A stretch of DNA of 64,000 bases from Patescibacteria group bacterium. Lineage in GTDB: Bacteria > Patescibacteriota > Minisyncoccia > Phycocordibacterales > UBA9973. Below, one piece after another: positions 3,861 to 18,942 of the stretch (its first letter is position 1; each line of letters opens with the position of its first letter). The translations under genes were made by a program, and so were the position numbers. The DNA lies in NCBI GenBank assembly GCA_038063515.1, contig JBBTUY010000001.1, forward strand, positions 10,972 to 74,971. Reading direction: 5' to 3'. The notes below the pieces were generated by a model. The model was not told the origin of the DNA and made no database searches. It was given only the letters and a program-made list of their open reading frames with translations.

Positions 3861-6313
3861 AGAAGATTGAAGAATTAGAAAAAGAACCTCCAAAAGACGA
3901 AATCCTACAAGTTGACGTAGTTAAGGAGATGAAAGAGTCATACCTTGCGTATGCTATGTCTGTTATTACGTCACGTGCATTGCCTGACGTTAGAGACGGA
4001 CTCAAGCCTGTGCACAGGAGAATTCTCTTTGCTATGAATGAAATGGGGCTCACTGCTAGTGCACGTTTTCGTAAGTCTGCTGCAGTAGTCGGAGATGTGC
4101 TTGGAAAATACCATCCACACGGAGATGTGGCTGTGTACGACTCTATGGTGGGTATGGCACAAGAGTTTTCATACAGGTATCCTTTCATATTAGGCCAAGG
4201 TAACTTTGGTTCTATAGATGGAGACAATGCAGCTGCTATGCGTTATACCGAGGCTAAAATGTCTAAAATTTCTTCAGAGCTTATGAGGGATTTAGAAAAG
4301 GAGACAGTAGACTATCGTCCTAACTACGATCAGACTCGCAAAGAGCCAATAGTTTTTCCTTCATCTGTACCGGCACTTCTTTTAAACGGGACTCTCGGTA
4401 TTGCTGTTGGTATGGCGACAAATATCCCTTCGCACAATTTAGGCGAGGTTCTTGATGCAACAAGCCATCTGATTGAAAACGAAGATGCTACTACAGAAGA
4501 TTTAATGCAATTTGTAAAAGGACCTGATTTCCCTACAGGGGGCATAGCATACGGATACAAAGACATGCTTCACGCATACTCTGGTGGACGTGGTGGAGTG
4601 GTCACTAGAGGTGAAGCAGAAATAGTAGAACAAAAAGACGGTAATTTTTCTATAATTATTACTTCTATTCCTTTTAGAGTAAACAAAGCAAATCTAATCA
4701 TGGCTATTGCAGAATTAGTCCAAGAGAAAAAGCTTGAGGGTATAAAAGGCCTTCGTGATGAGTCTACGAGAGACATTCGTGTCGTTATAGATCTAAAGCC
4801 TAGCGCCCATCCAGAAAAAGTTTTAAATTATATTTACAAAAACACTCAGCTCGAGTCAAATTTCAATTTTAACATGGTAGCACTTGTGGACGGTGTGCCT
4901 CAGACTCTGTCTCTTAAGTCTATACTCGAGCAATTTATTTTACATAGAAAAGAAGTAGTACGAAGACGAAGTGAATACGATCTTAAAAAAGCACAAGAAC
5001 GTGAACACATTTTGCTTGGTTTGAAAAAAGCACTCGACAAGATTGATCGTGTTATCACCATCATTCGTGGCTCTAAGAATTCTCAAATTGCAAAACTAAA
5101 CTTAATGAAAGAATTTAAGTTTTCAGATTTACAGGCTACTGCCATACTTGAGATGAAGCTTTCAAAGCTCGCTGGTCTTGAGAGAAAGGCAGTGGAAGAT
5201 GAATTGAAAGAAAAACAAAATTTCATAGCAGAAATGAAAGATCTTCTTGCAAGTCCAAAAAAGATTTTGAAACTTATCGCAACAGAATTAAAAGAAATTC
5301 GTGAAAAATACGCAGACGAAAGAAGAACAAAGATCATCAAAGGGGGAGTAAAAGAAATCTCTGATGAAGATCTCGTGCCAGAAAAGGAGACTATGCTTGT
5401 GCTTACTGCCGGAGGATATGTAAAGTGTACAGATCCTAAAGAATACAAGTCACAAAAGCGTGGCGGTGTCGGCGTGATCGATCTTGAAACTAAAGAAGAA
5501 GACTTTGTTACAATGCTTGTCTCTGGTTCTACACATAGCAACATGCTTTTCTTCACAAACCTTGGTAAAGCATATCAAATGAAAATGTATGACATACCTG
5601 AGGGTCATCGTGCTACAAAAGGTAAGTCCATCATGAATTTCCTCTCACTTTCCGGTGATGAAAAGGTAAGCTCAATACTCGCCATGCCTAAAGATTTAAA
5701 TAAATCTTCTGCTTCACTTCTGCTTGTGACAAAAGACGGCACAGCAAAGAAAATGGCAAGTTCAAGCTTCCATGATGTGAGGAGGAGCGGAATCATAGCT
5801 ATTCGTCTCGACAAAGGCGACGAGCTCGTGGCCGCACTGAGTGTGGACAAAGGTGATGAGGTAATGATTGCAACAGGCGACGGACAAGCAATAAGATTTA
5901 AAGAGTCTGATGTGCGTGAAATGGGTAGAACTGCAGGAGGAGTTACCGGTATGAAATTAAAGAAAGGGGATATTGTCATAGGTGTGGATGTTATTAAAAA
6001 GGAACACAAAGATGGAACATTCCTCACCATGAGTGCAAATGGTTTTGGTAAAAAGACCAATCTTAAAGAATACAAAGTTCAGAAACGTGGTGGCTCTGGT
6101 ATAAAGACTGCAAAGGTTACAGGAAAGACAGGTAAGCTCATTGTCGCAAAAGTTCTAGCAGGGGAGGAAGAAGAGCTCGTAGCTATGTCTAAAAAAGGTC
6201 AGGTCATACGTACAGCACTCAAAGATATCTCAGCACTTGGTCGTCAGACACAAGGTGTCACGATAATGCGCCTACGCGCAGGTGACGGCATTGCATCACT
6301 TGCGTGCATATAA
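3854..6313 (+). CDS. gyrA: DNA gyrase subunit A
   Basis: [18 protein letters not shown] motif containing the active-site Tyr region; 819 aa with C-terminal beta-pinwheel repeats. Confidence 0.95.
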
Positions 6314-6328
6314 TATAATGTCTAAAAG

Positions 6329-6904
6329 ATGACAAACACAAAAATACAAATAGCCTTCAGAGATTTTAATGTAACATATTTTAAACCGGATAATAAAGAA
6401 ATTGTAATTTTTTCGTTAGGTAATTGTGAGATTGGAATACCCATTGTACGTATTCACTCTTCTTGCTTGTTTGGGGAAGCTTTTAATTCACAAGATTGTG
6501 ATTGCGCACAACAACTCAATGCTACTATTAAAAGAATTGTTCAAAATGGTGCAGGTATCATAGTTTATGTTTTTGAAGAAGGTAGAGGGATAGGGCTAGA
6601 AAATAAAATAAAAGCAATAGAAATTGAACGTACAGAAGAGGTAGACACAGTAGAGGCTTTTAGAAAATTAGGCTTTGAACCAGACCCGCGAGATTTGGAT
6701 ATTCCAGCTAAAATACTTTCAGATTTAAACACAAGTAAAACTATTGGATTATTTTCTGGAAATCCAAAAAAGAAACAATCATTAGAAAAGTTCGGATTTA
6801 AAATTGTTGAAGAATATGAAACTAGTGAACCTTTATTATCAGTAGTAGCAAAAAAGGAAAAAGAAACTAAACGTACAAAACTCGGATATAGTTACAAAAA
6901 ATAA
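6329..6904 (+). CDS. ribA: GTP cyclohydrolase II-like (RibA family)
   Basis: RIHSSCLFGEAF...CDCAQQL...EGRGIGLENKI closely matches the RibA zinc and catalytic motifs. Confidence 0.7.
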   Translation: MTNTKIQIAFRDFNVTYFKPDNKEIVIFSLGNCEIGIPIVRIHSSCLFGEAFNSQDCDCAQQLNATIKRIVQNGAGIIVYVFEEGRGIGLENKIKAIEIERTEEVDTVEAFRKLGFEPDPRDLDIPAKILSDLNTSKTIGLFSGNPKKKQSLEKFGFKIVEEYETSEPLLSVVAKKEKETKRTKLGYSYKK

Positions 6905-7230
6905 TGTTTAAAATCATAAAAATTTTCTTAAACACAATACCTATAATTTTTATGGTTTTTCTGATACCCATTGTGGAGGATGATTATTTGCTCACTGGTA
7001 TCTATATAGCAATAATCATCGCTCTTTTTTCATTTAAAAAAGAACGAAAAGAAATACTCATCTTTACTCTCGGATTTTTCTCTATGATATTTTTTGAGTA
7101 TATCTTTATAAGTACTGGAGTAGAAACTTTTTTAAGAAATAGTTTATTCGGCATAATGCCACTCTGGCTTCCATTTCTCTGGGGTTATGGTTTTGTAGTT
7201 ATTAAGCGCTCTACCTACCTATTAAATTAA
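6904..7230 (+). CDS. Small polytopic membrane protein, hypothetical
   Basis: Three hydrophobic segments; start overlaps the ribA stop. Confidence 0.3.
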   Translation: MFKIIKIFLNTIPIIFMVFLIPIVEDDYLLTGIYIAIIIALFSFKKERKEILIFTLGFFSMIFFEYIFISTGVETFLRNSLFGIMPLWLPFLWGYGFVVIKRSTYLLN

Positions 7231-7256: not shown

Positions 7257-7873
7257 GTACCTTCCTTGCATAATTCTAGTGTTTCTTGCTCAAAATCTTT
7301 TTCGTCAAATGTGGACATTATGAGATCTTTAGATAGTATTGTTAGATTTCTTTTGTTTATGAAATCTATGTAACTACTCCATGGATATTCTCTGGGGTGT
7401 TGCGTCATTTTAGCTTTGACAGGATTCATATGCATATATGCTGATATCCACATTAACTGAGGATTATTTTGTATTAGTACAGCTTTGAATTTATCTTGAA
7501 AAACATGCCCAACTCTTTTGTATTTTTTGTTTATGTATTTAGAATAACTTGTACAGAGTTTTGAAATTAATTTTGAAATTGGAACATCTTTAGTTTGTTC
7601 TATGAGTAAATGAAAATGATTCGGCATCAAACAGAAAGCGTGGAGCTTAAAGTCACCCTTAACAGTTCCAGTAATTCTAATTCTTGAGTAGGGCATAGAA
7701 GTTAGCTTCTCTTTATTTAGTTCTTCTTCGGTAAATCCTAAGCATAGTCCGAGTCTAAAAAGAAAAGCTGTGTGATCTTGATTGTCAAAAAATATTTTTT
7801 CTTTGTTGTTACCACGATTGTAGATATGTAAAATATTGCCAGAGGCAAAATTTTTATAGTCTCTATTGTTCAT
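7238..7873 (-). CDS. tnpA: IS200-like / REP-associated tyrosine (Y1 HUH) transposase
   Basis: LHIYNRGNNKEKIFFDNQDHTAFL and CLMPNHFHLLIE (HuH) motifs of the Transposase_17 family. Confidence 0.75.
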   Translation of the reverse strand: MNNRDYKNFASGNILHIYNRGNNKEKIFFDNQDHTAFLFRLGLCLGFTEEELNKEKLTSMPYSRIRITGTVKGDFKLHAFCLMPNHFHLLIEQTKDVPISKLISKLCTSYSKYINKKYKRVGHVFQDKFKAVLIQNNPQLMWISAYMHMNPVKAKMTQHPREYPWSSYIDFINKRNLTILSKDLIMSTFDEKDFEQETLELCKEGTVKDGL

Positions 7874-14422: not shown

Positions 14423-14903
14423 AGGACTGACTAGAGAATTTATGATAATGATCATTTAAGAAGGTCAGTTCAATATTCTTATTTCGGAGTAAAATAGAAC
14501 ATTTGTTCTTATCTGGTGCTAAAACACAGGTTAATGACTTGTTTTGCTCTAAAAACTCAACAAGGCAACCAAAGTCACCATCCCCAGTTATTAAAATACA
14601 TGAATTAAAAGCTTTAGTATAGAAATCTGAAACATTTTTTAGAACGAGTTCAGCATCACAGTTACCCTTTATTCTTCCATCAACAGATATGGTTTGTTTA
14701 AAAACAAGAATAAAACCACACTCTTGAAGGTATTCATAAAATTTTACCCTATTTGGAACAAGACCTATAAATAGGTATATATTTTCTGGGTTATATTTTT
14801 GACGAAGCCAGCCTCTAAATTTCTTATAGTCTATTTCGAAACCAAGTTCTTTTGCTGCTCTGTAGAGATTATTTCCATCAATATAAATATTAATTTTATT
14901 CAT
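14421..14903 (-). CDS. NYN-domain (LabA-like) protein, putative RNase
   Basis: IYIDGNNLY, GNCDAEL and ITGDGDF motifs of the NYN fold. Confidence 0.7.
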   Translation of the reverse strand: MNKINIYIDGNNLYRAAKELGFEIDYKKFRGWLRQKYNPENIYLFIGLVPNRVKFYEYLQECGFILVFKQTISVDGRIKGNCDAELVLKNVSDFYTKAFNSCILITGDGDFGCLVEFLEQNKSLTCVLAPDKNKCSILLRNKNIELTFLNDHYHKFSSQS

Positions 14904-14927
14904 TTAAAGTATATTTTACCATAAATC

Positions 14928-14954
14928 AAAAAATCCCCAAGTTGGGGATTTTTT
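14928..14954. terminator. Bidirectional terminator AAAAAATCCCCAAGTTGGGGATTTTTT
   Basis: Perfect stem with flanking A and T runs. Confidence 0.8.
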
Positions 14955-14965
14955 GATTACGATTA

Positions 14966-15661
14966 TTAATCGTGCTTCGCAGGCTTTGCGTGATATCTAG
15001 CTTCTCCACCAAAGATTTTTCGGACGAGGACGACTATTATAAGTATGATTATTGCAAATAGTATCCACTGTAGAAGTCCTGAGGGCATGAAGCTACCGTT
15101 ACCAAAGATTGCATTCGAAGCGAGGTCAGAATAATTTCCTATAGATTTATCTTCTGTCGTACTTTTGTTTTGGTTATATAGGTAGTTGTTAGGATCTTCG
15201 TTCTTTTGAGTATTTGTAGTTTGTGCAGTTTTTACATAACCCTTTATTTTAAAGAATATTGCAACAGAATACGCACTTCTACTAGGGTTGTATACGTTTA
15301 TGTATCCACCGTCAGAGCTCGAAAGGTCTGCATTAGTTAGGTGTATAAAGAGGTGCCTTCCATCTATGAAAGTCGTAGGGCGAGGGGAGCCTTTCCATCT
15401 TGCGACAGAGTTAGCCATAAATCCACGACCCGTAAGAGTAACAGTTGTATCAGGTTCACCTGAGTTTGCTGATCCAGGCTTTAAAGAATAAAGCTGTGGT
15501 ACGGGGTTCTGTGAGGGTGCTAGGAAGTGGTCGTATCCATCATCATAATACTCTGCTTTTGCAGTATGAGGCATAAATGCGAGTCCTAAAGAGAAAATAG
15601 CTAGTATTATCAATGTAGAAACTACTCCATATTTGATTTTTAGACTATTTATTTTATTCAT
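14966..15661 (-). CDS. Secreted, C-terminally membrane-anchored protein with an Ig/IPT-like segment
   Basis: Signal peptide MNKINSLKIKYGVV...AKA; TVTLTGRGF...ARW segment; C-terminal TM plus a basic tail. Start set at ATG 15661 because the longer frame would overlap tRNA-Leu. Confidence 0.45.
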   Translation of the reverse strand: MNKINSLKIKYGVVSTLIILAIFSLGLAFMPHTAKAEYYDDGYDHFLAPSQNPVPQLYSLKPGSANSGEPDTTVTLTGRGFMANSVARWKGSPRPTTFIDGRHLFIHLTNADLSSSDGGYINVYNPSRSAYSVAIFFKIKGYVKTAQTTNTQKNEDPNNYLYNQNKSTTEDKSIGNYSDLASNAIFGNGSFMPSGLLQWILFAIIILIIVVLVRKIFGGEARYHAKPAKHD

Positions 15662-15700
15662 ACCTATATAATAGCATATTTTAAATAAAAAGTCAAGTTG

Positions 15701-15782
15701 TGCTGGAGAAGGGACTCGAACCCTTAAGCCTTGCGGCACTAGTTCCTAAGACTAGCGCGTATACCAATTCCGCCACTCCAGC
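15701..15782 (-). tRNA. tRNA-Leu (anticodon TAG)
   Basis: Cloverleaf with a 7-bp acceptor stem, CTTAGGA anticodon loop, long variable arm, GGTTCGAGTCC T-arm. Confidence 0.8.
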
Positions 15783-15786
15783 AATG

Positions 15787-15859
15787 TGCGCCCTGAAGGG
15801 ATCGAACCTTCGACCTTATCCTTAAGAGGGATCTGCTCTACCAGCTGAGCTAAGGGCGC
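15787..15859 (-). tRNA. tRNA-Lys (anticodon CTT)
   Basis: GCGCCCT acceptor stem, GCTCAGCTGGTAGAGC D-arm, CTCTTAA anticodon loop, GGTTCGATCC T-arm. Confidence 0.8.
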
Positions 15860-15902
15860 ATTATTTTAAATTTTTTAACTTCTATTTTATAACATTCTTC
15901 TG

Positions 15903-16087
15903 TTGAATCCGCTACAGCTGAGCTAAGGGAGTATTTTATATTTTTAAAACCTACCTATATTATTATCTAATAAATTATTTTGTTGAACCCGCTACATCTA
16001 AACTAAGGGCGCATACGTATTTACATCTTATTTTAAACTATAATCTTACTAAAAATCTAACGACCTACCAAAACAACTAAGGGTGCA
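15903..16087 (-). repeat. Three degenerate copies of the 5' portion (acceptor plus D-arm) of tRNA-Lys at about 75-79 bp periodicity (15903-15934, 15983-16013, 16056-16087)
   Basis: Shared core CTAAGGG[C/A/T]G[C/T]AT and GCTACAGCTGAGCTAAGGG; similarity decays with distance from the intact tRNA-Lys. Confidence 0.5.
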
Positions 16088-16117
16088 TTTATAAAACAAA
16101 AAAATTTCAAAAAACGG

Positions 16118-16199
16118 TGCCCGGAGTGGGAGTCGAACCCACATCCCTTACGAGACACGATTTTAAGTCGTGCGCGTATACCAATTCCGCCATCCGGGC
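16118..16199 (-). tRNA. tRNA-Leu (anticodon TAA)
   Basis: GCCCGGA acceptor stem, CTTAAAA anticodon loop, long variable arm, GGGTTCGACTCCC T-arm. Confidence 0.8.
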
Positions 16200-16259
16200 A
16201 ATTTATTTATAACCTTCCTAATATATCAGAGAAATAAAGAAATGTTAAATAAAATGCTG

Positions 16260-16332
16260 AGGCCACGGTGGGATTTGCACCCACGCGTCGCGGTTTTGCA
16301 GACCGCTGTGTTAGCTACTTCACCACGTGGCC
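16260..16332 (-). tRNA. tRNA-Cys (anticodon GCA), non-canonical T-loop UGCAAAU
   Basis: 7-bp GGCCACG acceptor stem, 5-bp anticodon stem with CTGCAAA loop, 5-bp T-stem; 3-bp D-stem. Confidence 0.65.
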
Positions 16333-17040
16333 TTCTATTATCCTTTTCATTACTTTATCGATAACTTGCGGTCGTAATTTAAAGTAATTATTGAATATTC
16401 TAAATTTTCGCATAAAAAAGGAATTAATGCTAGTGCCTTTATACATCAGCTTAAATAACTCTAAAGAATCTTTTGTATTATATATTAATTGATAGGATCT
16501 TTTACTTACATATATTTTACCATTTTTAATCTCAGCAATTTCTAAAGAAGCCTGCATTTCTTGAAGAAATAATTTACTACCACTTGTAAATATTACACGT
16601 ACTCTTTTGATAATTAATTTTTGAGTTTTACCTTTAGTTTGTAGAAAACTAACACAACCATCACCATCAAAATATCCTCTGACAAAGTCACCTAAGTATT
16701 TTTTTGGAATTTTAGGAAAATTTATCGTTAAGGATTTATTTGGGTATAATCCTAATTTAAAAAGGTCGTTATATATTTTATGGCTGCCTATTCTTAATAT
16801 AAAACAAATTTTTCCTCCTATGAAATTTGATTTTTTCTGACCAATTTTATGCTCAGAATTTAGCCAGTTTTTAATTCTATATATAGAATCTTCATCTGTG
16901 CTTGTTATTTGTATGTATTTACCACGCATGTAAGGGGAATCATCTAAGCTTCCATCAGCGTAGATATAACCTAAAACATATCCCATAGTCGGTGACCATT
17001 TTTTAAAAAACTTTTCGTTAACTTTATATTTTAATCCCAC
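16315..17040 (-). CDS. LAGLIDADG homing endonuclease, double-motif, free-standing
   Basis: Two motifs, LGYIYADGSL and VRGYFDGDGCVSF, about 100 aa apart. The 3' end overlaps the 5' end of tRNA-Cys by about 18 nt. Confidence 0.75.
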   Translation of the reverse strand: MGLKYKVNEKFFKKWSPTMGYVLGYIYADGSLDDSPYMRGKYIQITSTDEDSIYRIKNWLNSEHKIGQKKSNFIGGKICFILRIGSHKIYNDLFKLGLYPNKSLTINFPKIPKKYLGDFVRGYFDGDGCVSFLQTKGKTQKLIIKRVRVIFTSGSKLFLQEMQASLEIAEIKNGKIYVSKRSYQLIYNTKDSLELFKLMYKGTSINSFFMRKFRIFNNYFKLRPQVIDKVMKRIIEGHVVK

Positions 17041-17085
17041 TTTTATATTATAGGTGGTAATTATGTATACTGCAAGTTAATTGCT

Positions 17086-17403
17086 CTATCTAAGCAATTC
17101 GTCAATTCTTTGTCTGTTCTTTTCTCCTTGATCTATCTCAATATCAATAAAAGGAATTATTTTAACAGGCATATTCTTTTTCAAGTATTCTCGGAGTTCT
17201 GGTCTTTTGCGTTTTGCGAATTCTAGCGCAGTCTTTTCTTTGTCAGTAGGAAGTACTGTCATAAAAATTGTTGCACGCTTTAGGTCAGGGGAACAGCTCG
17301 CATTTGTAACAGTCAAAAGGGAAGTTTTATTATTTTCTCTTCCTAGGAATTCTGCTGCCAGTTCTTTTATTTTATTTGTGACTTTCTCGTTTCTTTGGGT
17401 CAT
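17086..17403 (-). CDS. rbfA: Ribosome-binding factor A
   Basis: RbfA-like SPDLKRATIFMTVL core; lies directly downstream of infB. Confidence 0.7.
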   Translation of the reverse strand: MTQRNEKVTNKIKELAAEFLGRENNKTSLLTVTNASCSPDLKRATIFMTVLPTDKEKTALEFAKRKRPELREYLKKNMPVKIIPFIDIEIDQGEKNRQRIDELLR

Positions 17404-17412
17404 ATTTGTCTA

Positions 17413-18942
17413 TTATTTATGCACGACTGAAAATGATTCTATTACGTCTCCTTCAGCTATTTCTATCTTTGATTCGATCATCATTCCAAATTCTGTTCCA
17501 GTGTTTACTTCACTTGTCTTAACCTTTCCTTTTTCTAGGTTTACTATTTTACCGCGTCCTATTTCAAAGTCTCTGCGTGTTATTTTCACCATAGCATTCA
17601 GGCTGATGCCTCCTTCGAGTACTCTGCCTCCTACTATTTGTCTTTCTTTTGTACGACTAAAAGCTCTTAAGATTTTTGCTTTTCCTATAACCACGTTTGT
17701 CTCCACTCGTGGTCTCCTTGCTTCCATTTCAGTTTCTAGCCATTCAGACATTTTATATATTATTTCAAAGAATGAAATTTTTATACCTCTATTCTCTGCT
17801 ATCTCGACAGCGGTAGCGTCAGCCTTTACATTAAATCCAATTATTATTGTGTCTTCTGCTGTGGTTATAGATTTCATGTCTCTTTCTGTGATGGGTCCCA
17901 CACCTTTTGCAATAATTTTAAATTCTACTGTTTGATCATCTACGCCGTCTATGGATTTTGTTTTTATTTTAGATATTTCTTTTTCTATTGCCTCTAATGA
18001 CCCAGATACATCAGCTTTTACTATCACAGCTATTATTTTCTTGCCTGTTTCTTCGGTATTTTGACTGTTTGTTTCATTTTTATTATCACCTTGCCATTTC
18101 TCCGCATATTCTATGGCGTCCTTTTTATTTTCGAAAGATTTAAATTCTGCACCAACGCGAGGCATTTTATCAAAACCAAAAATTCTAACAGGTGAAGAAA
18201 AGTGAGCTTCATCAACAGGGGAGCCTGTAAAGTTTTCTATCATACGAGTAGAACAAATGCTGTGTTCGGTGACCACTGTCATGCCTTTTTTTAATACACC
18301 TTCTTTTATGAGCATAGTAGCTTGCATTCCACGTTTTGAGTCGAGGTTTGCTTCGAGTATGTAGCCTGATGCATTGCCAGTCTCTATGCCGGCTATGTTT
18401 TCTACTTCTGCAATGAGTAGTATGAGTGAAAGGAGGCTGTCTACTCCAGTGCCTACTTTTGCAGAGATCTCTACGTATGGTATTTTACCCCCATAGTTTT
18501 CTAGATAGATTTCATGCTCTGCGAGCTCCATTTTTGTTTTTTCTACATTTGCGCCTGGTTTATCTATTTTATTTATTGCTACTATGGCAGGGAGCTTCAT
18601 GTCTACGACTGTTTTCCATGCTTCTAGTGTTTGTGGCTTTACCCCATCTTCTGCAGAGACGACGAGTATTGCTATGTCTGCAATCATGGCTCCACGCTCA
18701 CGCATCTTAGAAAAGGCTTCGTGTCCGGGTGTATCTAAAAAGGTGATTTTCTTTTTCTCACCAGTTTCATCTTTGTGTAAAACTTCGTATGCAGAAATCC
18801 TCTGGGTGATGCCTCCAGTCTCACTATCAACTACATTTGATTTTCGTATATAGTCGAGGAGCGTAGATTTACCATGATCGATGTGACCCATAACTACCAC
18901 GACTGGTGGTCTACTTGTAATTGTATTTTCTTTTATATTCAT
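17413..18942 (-). CDS. infB: Translation initiation factor IF-2, short form without the N-terminal extension
   Basis: G-domain [12 protein letters not shown]...DTPGHEAF, then the IF-2 beta-barrel domains; 509 aa. Confidence 0.9.

Follow-up and report, generated by a model that had tools for sequence, protein, structure and literature searches.

LAGLIDADG homing endonucleases make site-specific double-strand breaks at targets of 14-22 bp, and homing endonuclease genes are known from introns, from inteins and, in phages, as free-standing genes. Ribosomal RNA (rRNA) introns with LAGLIDADG proteins are common in Patescibacteria (PMC11809585, PMC7143001). The free-standing endonucleases of T-even phages (SegA-G and MobE) carry out "intronless homing", with SegB located in the T4 transfer RNA (tRNA) gene cluster, and I-TevI represses its own expression by binding an operator that resembles its homing site and lies over its promoter (PMC2988022). 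Collaborative homing has been described for F-CphI, which is encoded beside the intron-containing psbA of cyanophage S-PM2 (PMC6083498), and a synthetic selfish element, ClvR, has been built on the principle of "cleave and rescue" (PMC6442612). The present analysis concerns a 64,000-nucleotide (nt) stretch of a Patescibacteria chromosome (contig JBBTUY010000001.1, positions 10,972 to 74,971; hereafter the window), in which a free-standing, two-motif LAGLIDADG gene ends inside an intact tRNA-Cys gene and may be a selfish element directed against that very tRNA gene.

The gene is an open reading frame (ORF) of 241 amino acids (aa) with a GTG start, and its last five codons (GHVVK) and TAG stop form positions 1-18 of tRNA-Cys(GCA) (Table 1). 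A sequence-only reading of this region had proposed an overlap of about 18 nt between a two-motif LAGLIDADG ORF and an intact tRNA-Cys, as the ORF list, ARAGORN and Infernal now confirm. That reading was also correct in placing the ORF next to rbfA-infB, although not in calling it upstream of them: the coding-strand order is infB, rbfA, endonuclease, tRNA-Cys, tRNA-Leu(taa), tRNA-Lys and tRNA-Leu(tag), the ORF thus lying downstream of rbfA. The description of the ORF as free-standing was borne out as well. No group I or group II intron was found in 14900-17500 (cmscan, Rfam, E<=10), where the search returned only four tRNAs and noise; an Rfam scan of the whole window at the gathering threshold likewise yielded tRNAs but no intron; and both ARAGORN and Infernal read tRNA-Cys as uninterrupted. 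An intron-encoded origin at this locus was rejected for want of an Rfam intron match and given the intact tRNA-Cys, and an intein was rejected because Pfam finds only LAGLIDADG domains in an ORF that is bounded by an intergenic region and a tRNA.

The ORF matches Pfam LAGLIDADG_3 in two stretches (E 7.4e-12; 45.8 bits against a cut-off of 22.5), Pfam finds no other domain in the 241-aa protein, and the two motifs read LGYIYADGS (residues 23-31) and RGYFDGDGC (residues 121-129). The catalytic acidic residues, whose loss the sequence-only reading had named as evidence against its proposal, are retained: D29 and D127 are invariant in an alignment of 26 homologues. An AlphaFold2 model built with these homologues (predicted local distance difference test score 89, predicted template modelling score 0.87) shows a tandem alpha-beta-beta-alpha-beta-beta-alpha fold in which the motif helices (17-29 and 113-127) meet at the domain interface and end at D29 and D127. 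In Foldseek comparisons, the best match of the model among solved structures is I-Tsp061I (E 2.7e-12), followed by I-AniI, an intein endonuclease domain, the bI3 maturase, I-SceI and the I-OnuI family, with WhiA at rank 31. As modelled, the product is a monomeric two-domain LAGLIDADG enzyme. Pairwise ratios of nonsynonymous to synonymous substitution (dN/dS) among relatives are 0.09-0.18, with dS near saturation, and sequence comparison thus indicates a gene that is intact and under purifying selection. Because the ORF is intact, its dN/dS low and its LAGLIDADG fold confidently predicted, the earlier suggestion of a remnant of an intron or mobile insertion is abandoned; the enzyme is probably active.

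Searches of a word-indexed database returned 2,875 relatives of the protein at E<=1e-3, and a library clustered at 50% identity returned 15,897 matching clusters at E<=1e-3 and 113 at E<=1e-30. Most of the 120 closest proteins end in tRNA-encoded tails (GHVVK, GVVAKW or similar). In every contig holding the region that was reached through six homologues of 52-78% identity (among L001-L012), the ORF ends 18-21 nt inside tRNA-Cys, and this linkage persists in one contig with a different upstream neighbourhood (L011). A species-level survey, with one genome per species, covered 80 loci from many Patescibacteria classes: the ORF abuts the 5' end of tRNA-Cys in 51, that of tRNA-Asp in 17 (a more distant subfamily, of 40-45% identity) and that of a group I intron-bearing tRNA-Asp missed by ARAGORN in six, lies just 3' of tRNA-Cys in two, and is cut off by contig ends in four, so that 74 of 76 informative loci show the ORF directly 5' of one of these two tRNAs. 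The ORF and tRNA share a strand in the window and in relatives; the stop codon mostly falls between -20 and +23 nt of the tRNA start, with a few ORFs reading through the entire tRNA; and in most loci the first nucleotide of the tRNA is also the first of a codon (C-terminus GHVVK or GVVAKW). Viral relatives, which served as a negative control, are at most 38% identical and none adjoins a tRNA; the tRNA link is therefore specific to this clade rather than general to the domain, and a phage vector was rejected on the same observations. On these comparisons, with about 100 other Patescibacteria loci linked to tRNA-Cys or tRNA-Asp, it is a solid conclusion that the overlap defines a large Patescibacteria family of tRNA-linked endonuclease genes.

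Neighbourhoods were also sampled through rbfA homologues, irrespective of whether the endonuclease was present. The locus in L095 (rbfA 79% identical) is an empty site, in which rbfA is followed by 31 nt and then by tRNA-Cys, tRNA-Leu(taa), tRNA-Lys and tRNA-Leu(tag); the endonuclease gene is likewise missing from L093 (rbfA 88% identical) and from the tRNA-Cys of L094 (rbfA 81% identical). In L093, the tRNA-Cys/tRNA-Leu(taa) pair (4332-4618) has an orientation opposite to that of rbfA and the remaining tRNAs of the cluster. The Cys-Leu-Lys-Leu order holds whether or not the endonuclease gene is present. Set beside the empty L095 site, a comparison with ORF-less orthologs of the kind from which the sequence-only reading had hoped to define an insertion, the element extends from a few nt past the rbfA stop to tRNA +1. 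Carriers at the compared site comprise L001, L002, L005, L006, L009 and L013-L017, the infB-rbfA-endonuclease-tRNA-Cys order being conserved down to 59% identity. The hosts L006, L009, L014 and L017 are distant (infB 45-59% identical), and in distant hosts the endonuclease is more conserved than IF-2 (74% versus 53% in L014). Among 120 metagenomic tRNA-Cys loci, only three have the ORF directly upstream. This distribution indicates a mobile gene, not a fixed host gene, and the proposal that the enzyme is domesticated does not sit well with its absence from the close same-order relatives L093 and L095 and from about 110 of the 120 metagenomic tRNA-Cys loci.

A 22-nt element, TTGCAGTAT-N6-TTACCAC, lies 6-12 nt upstream of the start codon and is usually followed by TATAAT. 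It copies the common tRNA-Cys gene in antisense over the stretch between the D-loop (GTGGTAA) and the anticodon loop (CTGCAA), both included. The two loop sequences are retained, still 9 nt apart, while AT-rich filling replaces the stems; the corresponding site in the common tRNA-Cys genes reads TTGCAG-AGGAATGCC-TTACCAC in L093 and TTGCAG-ACTTTTGCC-TTACCAC in L095. The mimic is unique in the window (0 matches in 100 shuffles), occurs once per locus and solely in front of the ORF, and is absent from the L095 empty site. The sense-form site is found upstream at <=2 mismatches in 34 of 57 tRNA-Cys-linked loci. With <=1 mismatch on either strand, the tRNA-Cys site is present in 30/57 tRNA-Cys-linked versus 0/23 tRNA-Asp-linked loci (mean of 200 shuffles, 0.005), and the tRNA-Asp site in 0/57 versus 5/23 (mean of 200 shuffles, 0). 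L070, L071, L074, L075 and L082 carry TGGTTA-N9-CCTGTCA upstream, a sense copy of the equivalent tRNA-Asp segment, and the mimic of the tRNA-Asp subfamily is an independent replicate of that of the tRNA-Cys subfamily.

The mimic adjoins what appears to be the endonuclease promoter. A TATAAT hexamer is conserved in group-1 loci and occurs on the other side of the mimic in group-2 loci; in the window, it lies 6 nt upstream of the GTG start with no Shine-Dalgarno sequence, and the messenger RNA (mRNA) therefore probably has no leader or only a very short one. Group-2 relatives have ATG at the position of the window's GTG. In L055, about 40 nt upstream of 6001, the mimic stands in the opposite orientation (GTGGTAAGGATATATCCTGTAA) before an endonuclease ORF. 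An ordinary promoter was rejected as an explanation of the mimic, which is unique to endonuclease upstream regions, inverted in L055, flanked by TATAAT on either side and not called by a promoter scan; the native tRNA-Cys promoter was rejected because the motif is absent from the L095 empty site; and an antisense RNA was judged unlikely given the sense orientation in the tRNA-Asp subfamily. The difference in orientation between subfamilies, the L055 inversion and the placement of TATAAT on either side therefore favor a protein-binding DNA site over a plain promoter or antisense RNA, and that the mimic is a putative endonuclease binding site or operator is a well-motivated hypothesis.

The tRNA-Cys gene itself is of an unusual type, with a D-loop (GUAGCUAA) lacking GG, a T-loop (UGCAAAU) containing G55, and U73. 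Endonuclease-linked tRNA-Cys genes are 91-95% identical across hosts whose infB/IF-2 are 48-66% identical, and the tRNA-Cys of the window is only 61-69% identical to that of syntenic relatives without the endonuclease (infB 66-67%). Meanwhile, tRNA-Leu(taa) and tRNA-Lys, at 99% and 96% identity to those of the window in L095, track the host. By these identities, tRNA-Cys follows the endonuclease and not the host, and the promoter element, the ORF and tRNA-Cys therefore constitute a jointly conserved unit. Across L001-L215 and the window, a tertiary pair of tRNA-Cys covaries almost perfectly: D-loop GG occurs with T-loop TTC in 93 unique sequences and D-loop AG (G18 to A) with T-loop TGC (U55 to G) in 75, with only 4 exceptions in 172.

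Two further tRNA-Cys arrangements deserve mention. Compared with L002, L003 has a second tRNA-Cys of the A18/G55 type (7714-7788), without an endonuclease ORF, which begins 3 nt after tRNA-Leu(tag) and shares its downstream flank, CCAAGACAGAACTCAAA, with the endonuclease-linked copy, an arrangement that suggests recombination between tRNA-Cys copies. The linked tRNA-Cys of L009 (5664-5736) looks mosaic, with an acceptor stem like that of the endonuclease-linked type and a D-arm and anticodon arm like those of the native type, and may record a gene-conversion tract ending inside the tRNA.

Linked tRNA-Cys genes avoid the segment that the mimic reproduces. The exact TTGCAG-N9-TTACCAC is found in none of about 60 endonuclease-linked tRNA-Cys genes. 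Of 120 metagenomic tRNA-Cys genes, about 65 contain it, always without a tRNA-Cys-type endonuclease ORF directly upstream; the loci in this comparison are phylogenetically non-independent. The A18:G55 form eliminates the GTGGTAA arm, the tRNA-Cys of the window deviates from the site as TTGCAG-N9-TTAGCTA (antisense), and the linked tRNAs of L011 and L026 keep the arm sequences with N10 spacing.

The tRNA-Asp subfamily includes a group I intron. In L069, L074, L078, L079, L090 and L092, a group I intron without an ORF interrupts tRNA-Asp(GUC), and the LAGLIDADG ORF stands directly before the 5' end of the tRNA. Rfam Intron_gpI scores 59 bits in L090 (6641-6929), 50.6 in L078 and 35.5 in L074, and the exons of L090, which were read directly, show anticodon positions 35 and 36 to be separated by the intron. 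The intron interrupts the segment that the mimic copies, and the ORF lies outside the intron. LAGLIDADG genes are also found at tRNA-Leu. In L094, an ORF (6424-7074) of a subfamily associated with tRNA-Leu(UAG) overlaps tRNA-Leu(tag) (7053-7135) and has an upstream region beginning with ATTGGTATA, a copy of the tRNA-Leu D-loop; similar ORFs precede tRNA-Leu(tag) in L105 and L169, and others directly follow tRNA-Leu(taa) in L115, L160, L161 and L171.

With a probability of roughly 0.6, we interpret the gene as a selfish, free-standing LAGLIDADG gene that practices intronless homing against the tRNA-Cys gene, travels with a resistant tRNA and is controlled by an I-TevI-like operator. Wherever tRNA-Cys stands without the endonuclease gene, the enzyme would recognize and cut a segment of about 22 bp within it, GTGGTAA-N9-CTGCAA, and repair from a gene-bearing donor would copy the endonuclease gene and the adjacent tRNA-Cys together. 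The altered D-loop, compensated by G55 in the T-loop, would render the linked tRNA-Cys uncuttable, the outcome being a natural "cleave and rescue" pair, and the upstream mimic, which overlaps the -35/-10 region, would act as an operator for autorepression, as in I-TevI. The ORF occupies the 5' leader of the transcript, from which RNase P could free a normal tRNA, and the insertion would therefore cost the host little; the same cut would also strip the last five codons and the stop from the ORF, limiting expression. The target is deduced solely from the mimic and from site avoidance, and both the target and the role of the operator are well-motivated hypotheses.

Several observations weigh against this interpretation. 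The variant type of tRNA-Cys also exists without an endonuclease gene (L101, L102, L112 and L183), and a six-frame hmmsearch with the family profile found no endonuclease remnants upstream of these unlinked copies; such genes may reflect loss of the endonuclease after fixation, and the variant may equally be an ordinary lineage variant that was not co-mobilized. The comparison of linked with unlinked tRNAs mixes differently sampled and phylogenetically non-independent sets. Some linked tRNAs are only one base off the mimic (TTACCAT in L002 and L013; TCACCAC in L018), and their resistance is not obvious. A recognizable mimic is absent from 23/57 tRNA-Cys-linked and 18/23 tRNA-Asp-linked loci. 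At the promoter, the -35 position is occupied by the TTGCAG of the mimic, a poor -35 element with 3/6 consensus bases, the promoter scan made no call, and it is unusual for a leaderless mRNA to start with GTG. Lastly, no presence/absence polymorphism was seen within the species of the window: all 12 contigs with an identical rbfA (Hainich groundwater) carry the gene.

The precise junction and fixed frame, with tRNA position 1 serving as codon position 1 in most loci, would also be expected if the enzyme recognized the 5' end of tRNA-Cys together with its leader and inserted at +1, where RNase P removes whatever lies upstream; the tRNA would then be the host's own, and the 22-mer a conserved promoter brought in by the element. 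An element that reaches from a few nt past the rbfA stop to tRNA +1 fits such homing to the leader, and the variant tRNA-Cys of L101, located at the same rbfA site without an endonuclease, could be an unoccupied target. Nevertheless, we consider this unlikely, as it leaves unexplained the cognate D-loop and anticodon-loop copies with exact spacing in both subfamilies, the occurrence of the mimic in either orientation (L055), and the divergence of tRNA-Cys between syntenic loci with and without the endonuclease; furthermore, the leaders are unconserved, which would leave half of a centered site unspecified.

A host function is the other alternative of substance. The protein could be a domesticated, no longer mobile LAGLIDADG protein, whether a WhiA-like regulator of the tRNA operon or a tRNA/ribosome maturation factor expressed with infB-rbfA, and WhiA demonstrates that the fold can be co-opted (PMC3984707). 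Strong purifying selection, the conserved infB-rbfA-endonuclease-tRNA-Cys order, the fixation of the gene in the window's species and a binding-site-like element at the promoter all agree with domestication. We nonetheless find it rather improbable, since the gene is absent from the closest relatives (L093 and L095) and most tRNA-Cys loci, both catalytic Asp are invariant, the tRNA link outlasts a change of upstream context (L011), conservation between distant hosts is higher for the endonuclease than for IF-2, and the protein has no extra domain. Far less credible still is a relic of an intron-encoded enzyme, an ORF once housed in a tRNA or rRNA group I intron and stranded upon intron loss or rearrangement. 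The nearest match among solved structures comes from an archaeal rRNA intron, LAGLIDADG proteins are commonly encoded in the rRNA introns of Patescibacteria (PMC11809585, PMC7143001), and some tRNA-Asp-linked relatives adjoin a group I intron; against these points stand the intact tRNA-Cys and the lack of any intron match in 14900-17500 at E<=10, the position of the ORF outside the tRNA in 74/74 abutting loci and outside the intron in the intron-bearing tRNA-Asp loci, and an ORF that is conserved and under selection instead of decaying.

Table 1. Positions of the endonuclease gene, its associated elements and neighboring genes in the window.
Feature	Position	Strand	Evidence or remark
LAGLIDADG ORF, two-motif, free-standing	16315..17040	-	stop TAG 16315-16317 within tRNA-Cys; ORF list, Pfam, AlphaFold2, Foldseek
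tRNA-Cys(GCA), endonuclease-linked variant	16259..16332	-	ARAGORN; Infernal (16260..16332, 60.3 bits)
ORF/tRNA-Cys overlap	16315..16332	-	18 nt
Linked tRNA-Cys segment matching the putative recognition site (about positions 15-37, D-loop to anticodon loop)	16296..16318	-	
Putative endonuclease binding site/operator, 22-nt tRNA-Cys-gene mimic TTGCAGTATACATAATTACCAC	17054..17075	-	motif search
-10 hexamer TATAAT, perfect	17047..17052	-	read from sequence
tRNA-Leu(taa)	16116-16199	-	co-oriented downstream tRNA cluster 15700..16199
tRNA-Lys pseudo-copies, decayed, three	~15894-16089	-	between tRNA-Leu(taa) and tRNA-Lys
tRNA-Lys(ctt)	15786-15859	-	
tRNA-Leu(tag)	15700-15782	-	
rbfA	17086-17403	-	host flank of insertion, outside element
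infB	17413-18942	-	host flank of insertion, outside element

Downstream of the element, the decayed tRNA fragments noticed in the sequence-only reading are real and amount to three tRNA-Lys pseudo-copies. Each joins the 5' acceptor and D-arm to a T-arm-like GGTTCAACA, forming a tandem array with the intact gene in which the 5' part of tRNA-Lys occurs in four copies (15842, 15915, 15995 and 16069) spaced by 73-80 nt; the spacers of relatives differ at the position of this array. Beyond the tRNA cluster, a 257-aa ORF was listed mechanically at 14966-15739 on the minus strand, with a GTG start inside tRNA-Leu(tag); the true start is probably an internal ATG (MNKINSLK...), and its protein has a TIG-like homologue in the same place in relatives.

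A broader view may be entertained, albeit tentatively and with rather less than an even chance of being right, in which a guild of LAGLIDADG "cleave and rescue" elements has made the tRNA genes of Patescibacteria its battleground, with tRNA-Cys, tRNA-Asp, tRNA-Leu(UAG) and probably others as targets. Each would bring a resistant replacement for an essential single-copy tRNA gene whose common allele it cuts; the G18:U55 to A18:G55 switch, changes in D-loop length and the group I introns in the anticodon loop of tRNA-Asp would be resistance adaptations; and the RNase-P-removed 5' leader would represent a third "phenotypically silent" niche beside introns and inteins.

Beyond this locus, the family has thousands of members in many Patescibacteria classes. 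If the proposed mechanism holds, it would constitute a natural cleave-and-rescue drive on an essential RNA gene, explain the unusual D-loop and T-loop variants of tRNA-Cys in Patescibacteria, and provide a natural set of meganucleases whose own promoters reveal their approximate 22-bp targets. It would also offer a candidate stage in the acquisition of mobility by tRNA introns, because the intron-bearing tRNA-Asp relatives display the layout of collaborative homing. For annotation, ORFs that run into tRNA genes in these genomes are real and should be neither trimmed nor discarded.

Among the closest known systems, I-Tsp061I, I-DmoI and the LAGLIDADG enzymes of Patescibacteria rRNA introns share the monomeric two-domain fold and belong to the same LAGLIDADG_3 family; however, they are encoded inside rRNA introns, whereas the enzyme of the window is encoded outside introns and is tRNA-linked, and sequence identity is about 19%. 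WhiA is similar in being a DNA-binding protein with a LAGLIDADG fold encoded in bacterial chromosomes outside introns (PMC3984707). It differs in having an added helix-turn-helix domain and in being universally conserved in its phyla, in contrast to the patchily distributed protein of the window, which has no extra domain. In addition, WhiA has lost the LAGLIDADG catalytic acidic residues, and the protein of the window keeps both Asp. With I-TevI, the shared feature is a target-like sequence on the enzyme's own promoter, which in the family of the window has conserved arms and a changed center. I-TevI is, by contrast, a GIY-YIG enzyme of modular build, its operator has no correctly spaced cleavage motif, and the operator of the window is putative. 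To our knowledge, no such operator has been described for any LAGLIDADG enzyme.

The likeness to ClvR is one of principle, as both would set a nuclease against an essential gene and supply a tightly linked, uncuttable copy of it (PMC6442612), but ClvR is engineered, with Cas9 in Drosophila, and the present locus would be a natural case. F-CphI is also a free-standing endonuclease encoded beside its target gene, with the linked copy protected (PMC6083498), as target and protection would be arranged here. This layout is matched exactly in the tRNA-Asp-linked relatives L069, L074, L078, L090 and L092, where an ORF-less group I intron splits the putative site; the tRNA-Cys of the window, in contrast, has no intron, its protection would come from changes in D-loop sequence and length, and the enzyme family and host are different.

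The T-even phage endonucleases resemble the gene of the window in being free-standing between other genes with their own promoters, SegB being likewise tRNA-linked (PMC2988022). They cut a nearby conserved gene in genomes lacking them and spread by co-conversion of flanks, as the enzyme of the window is proposed to do. Unlike these GIY-YIG or HNH enzymes, which spread in co-infection and cut sites hundreds of bp away, the enzyme of the window is a LAGLIDADG protein of a cellular Patescibacteria chromosome, encoded within +/-20 nt of one tRNA and with its stop usually inside it. The literature on LAGLIDADG proteins and tRNA in Patescibacteria or the candidate phyla radiation yielded only rRNA-intron cases; a cellular family nested at the 5' end of specific tRNA genes is thus, as far as we could find, undescribed, and it belongs among the free-standing homing endonucleases.

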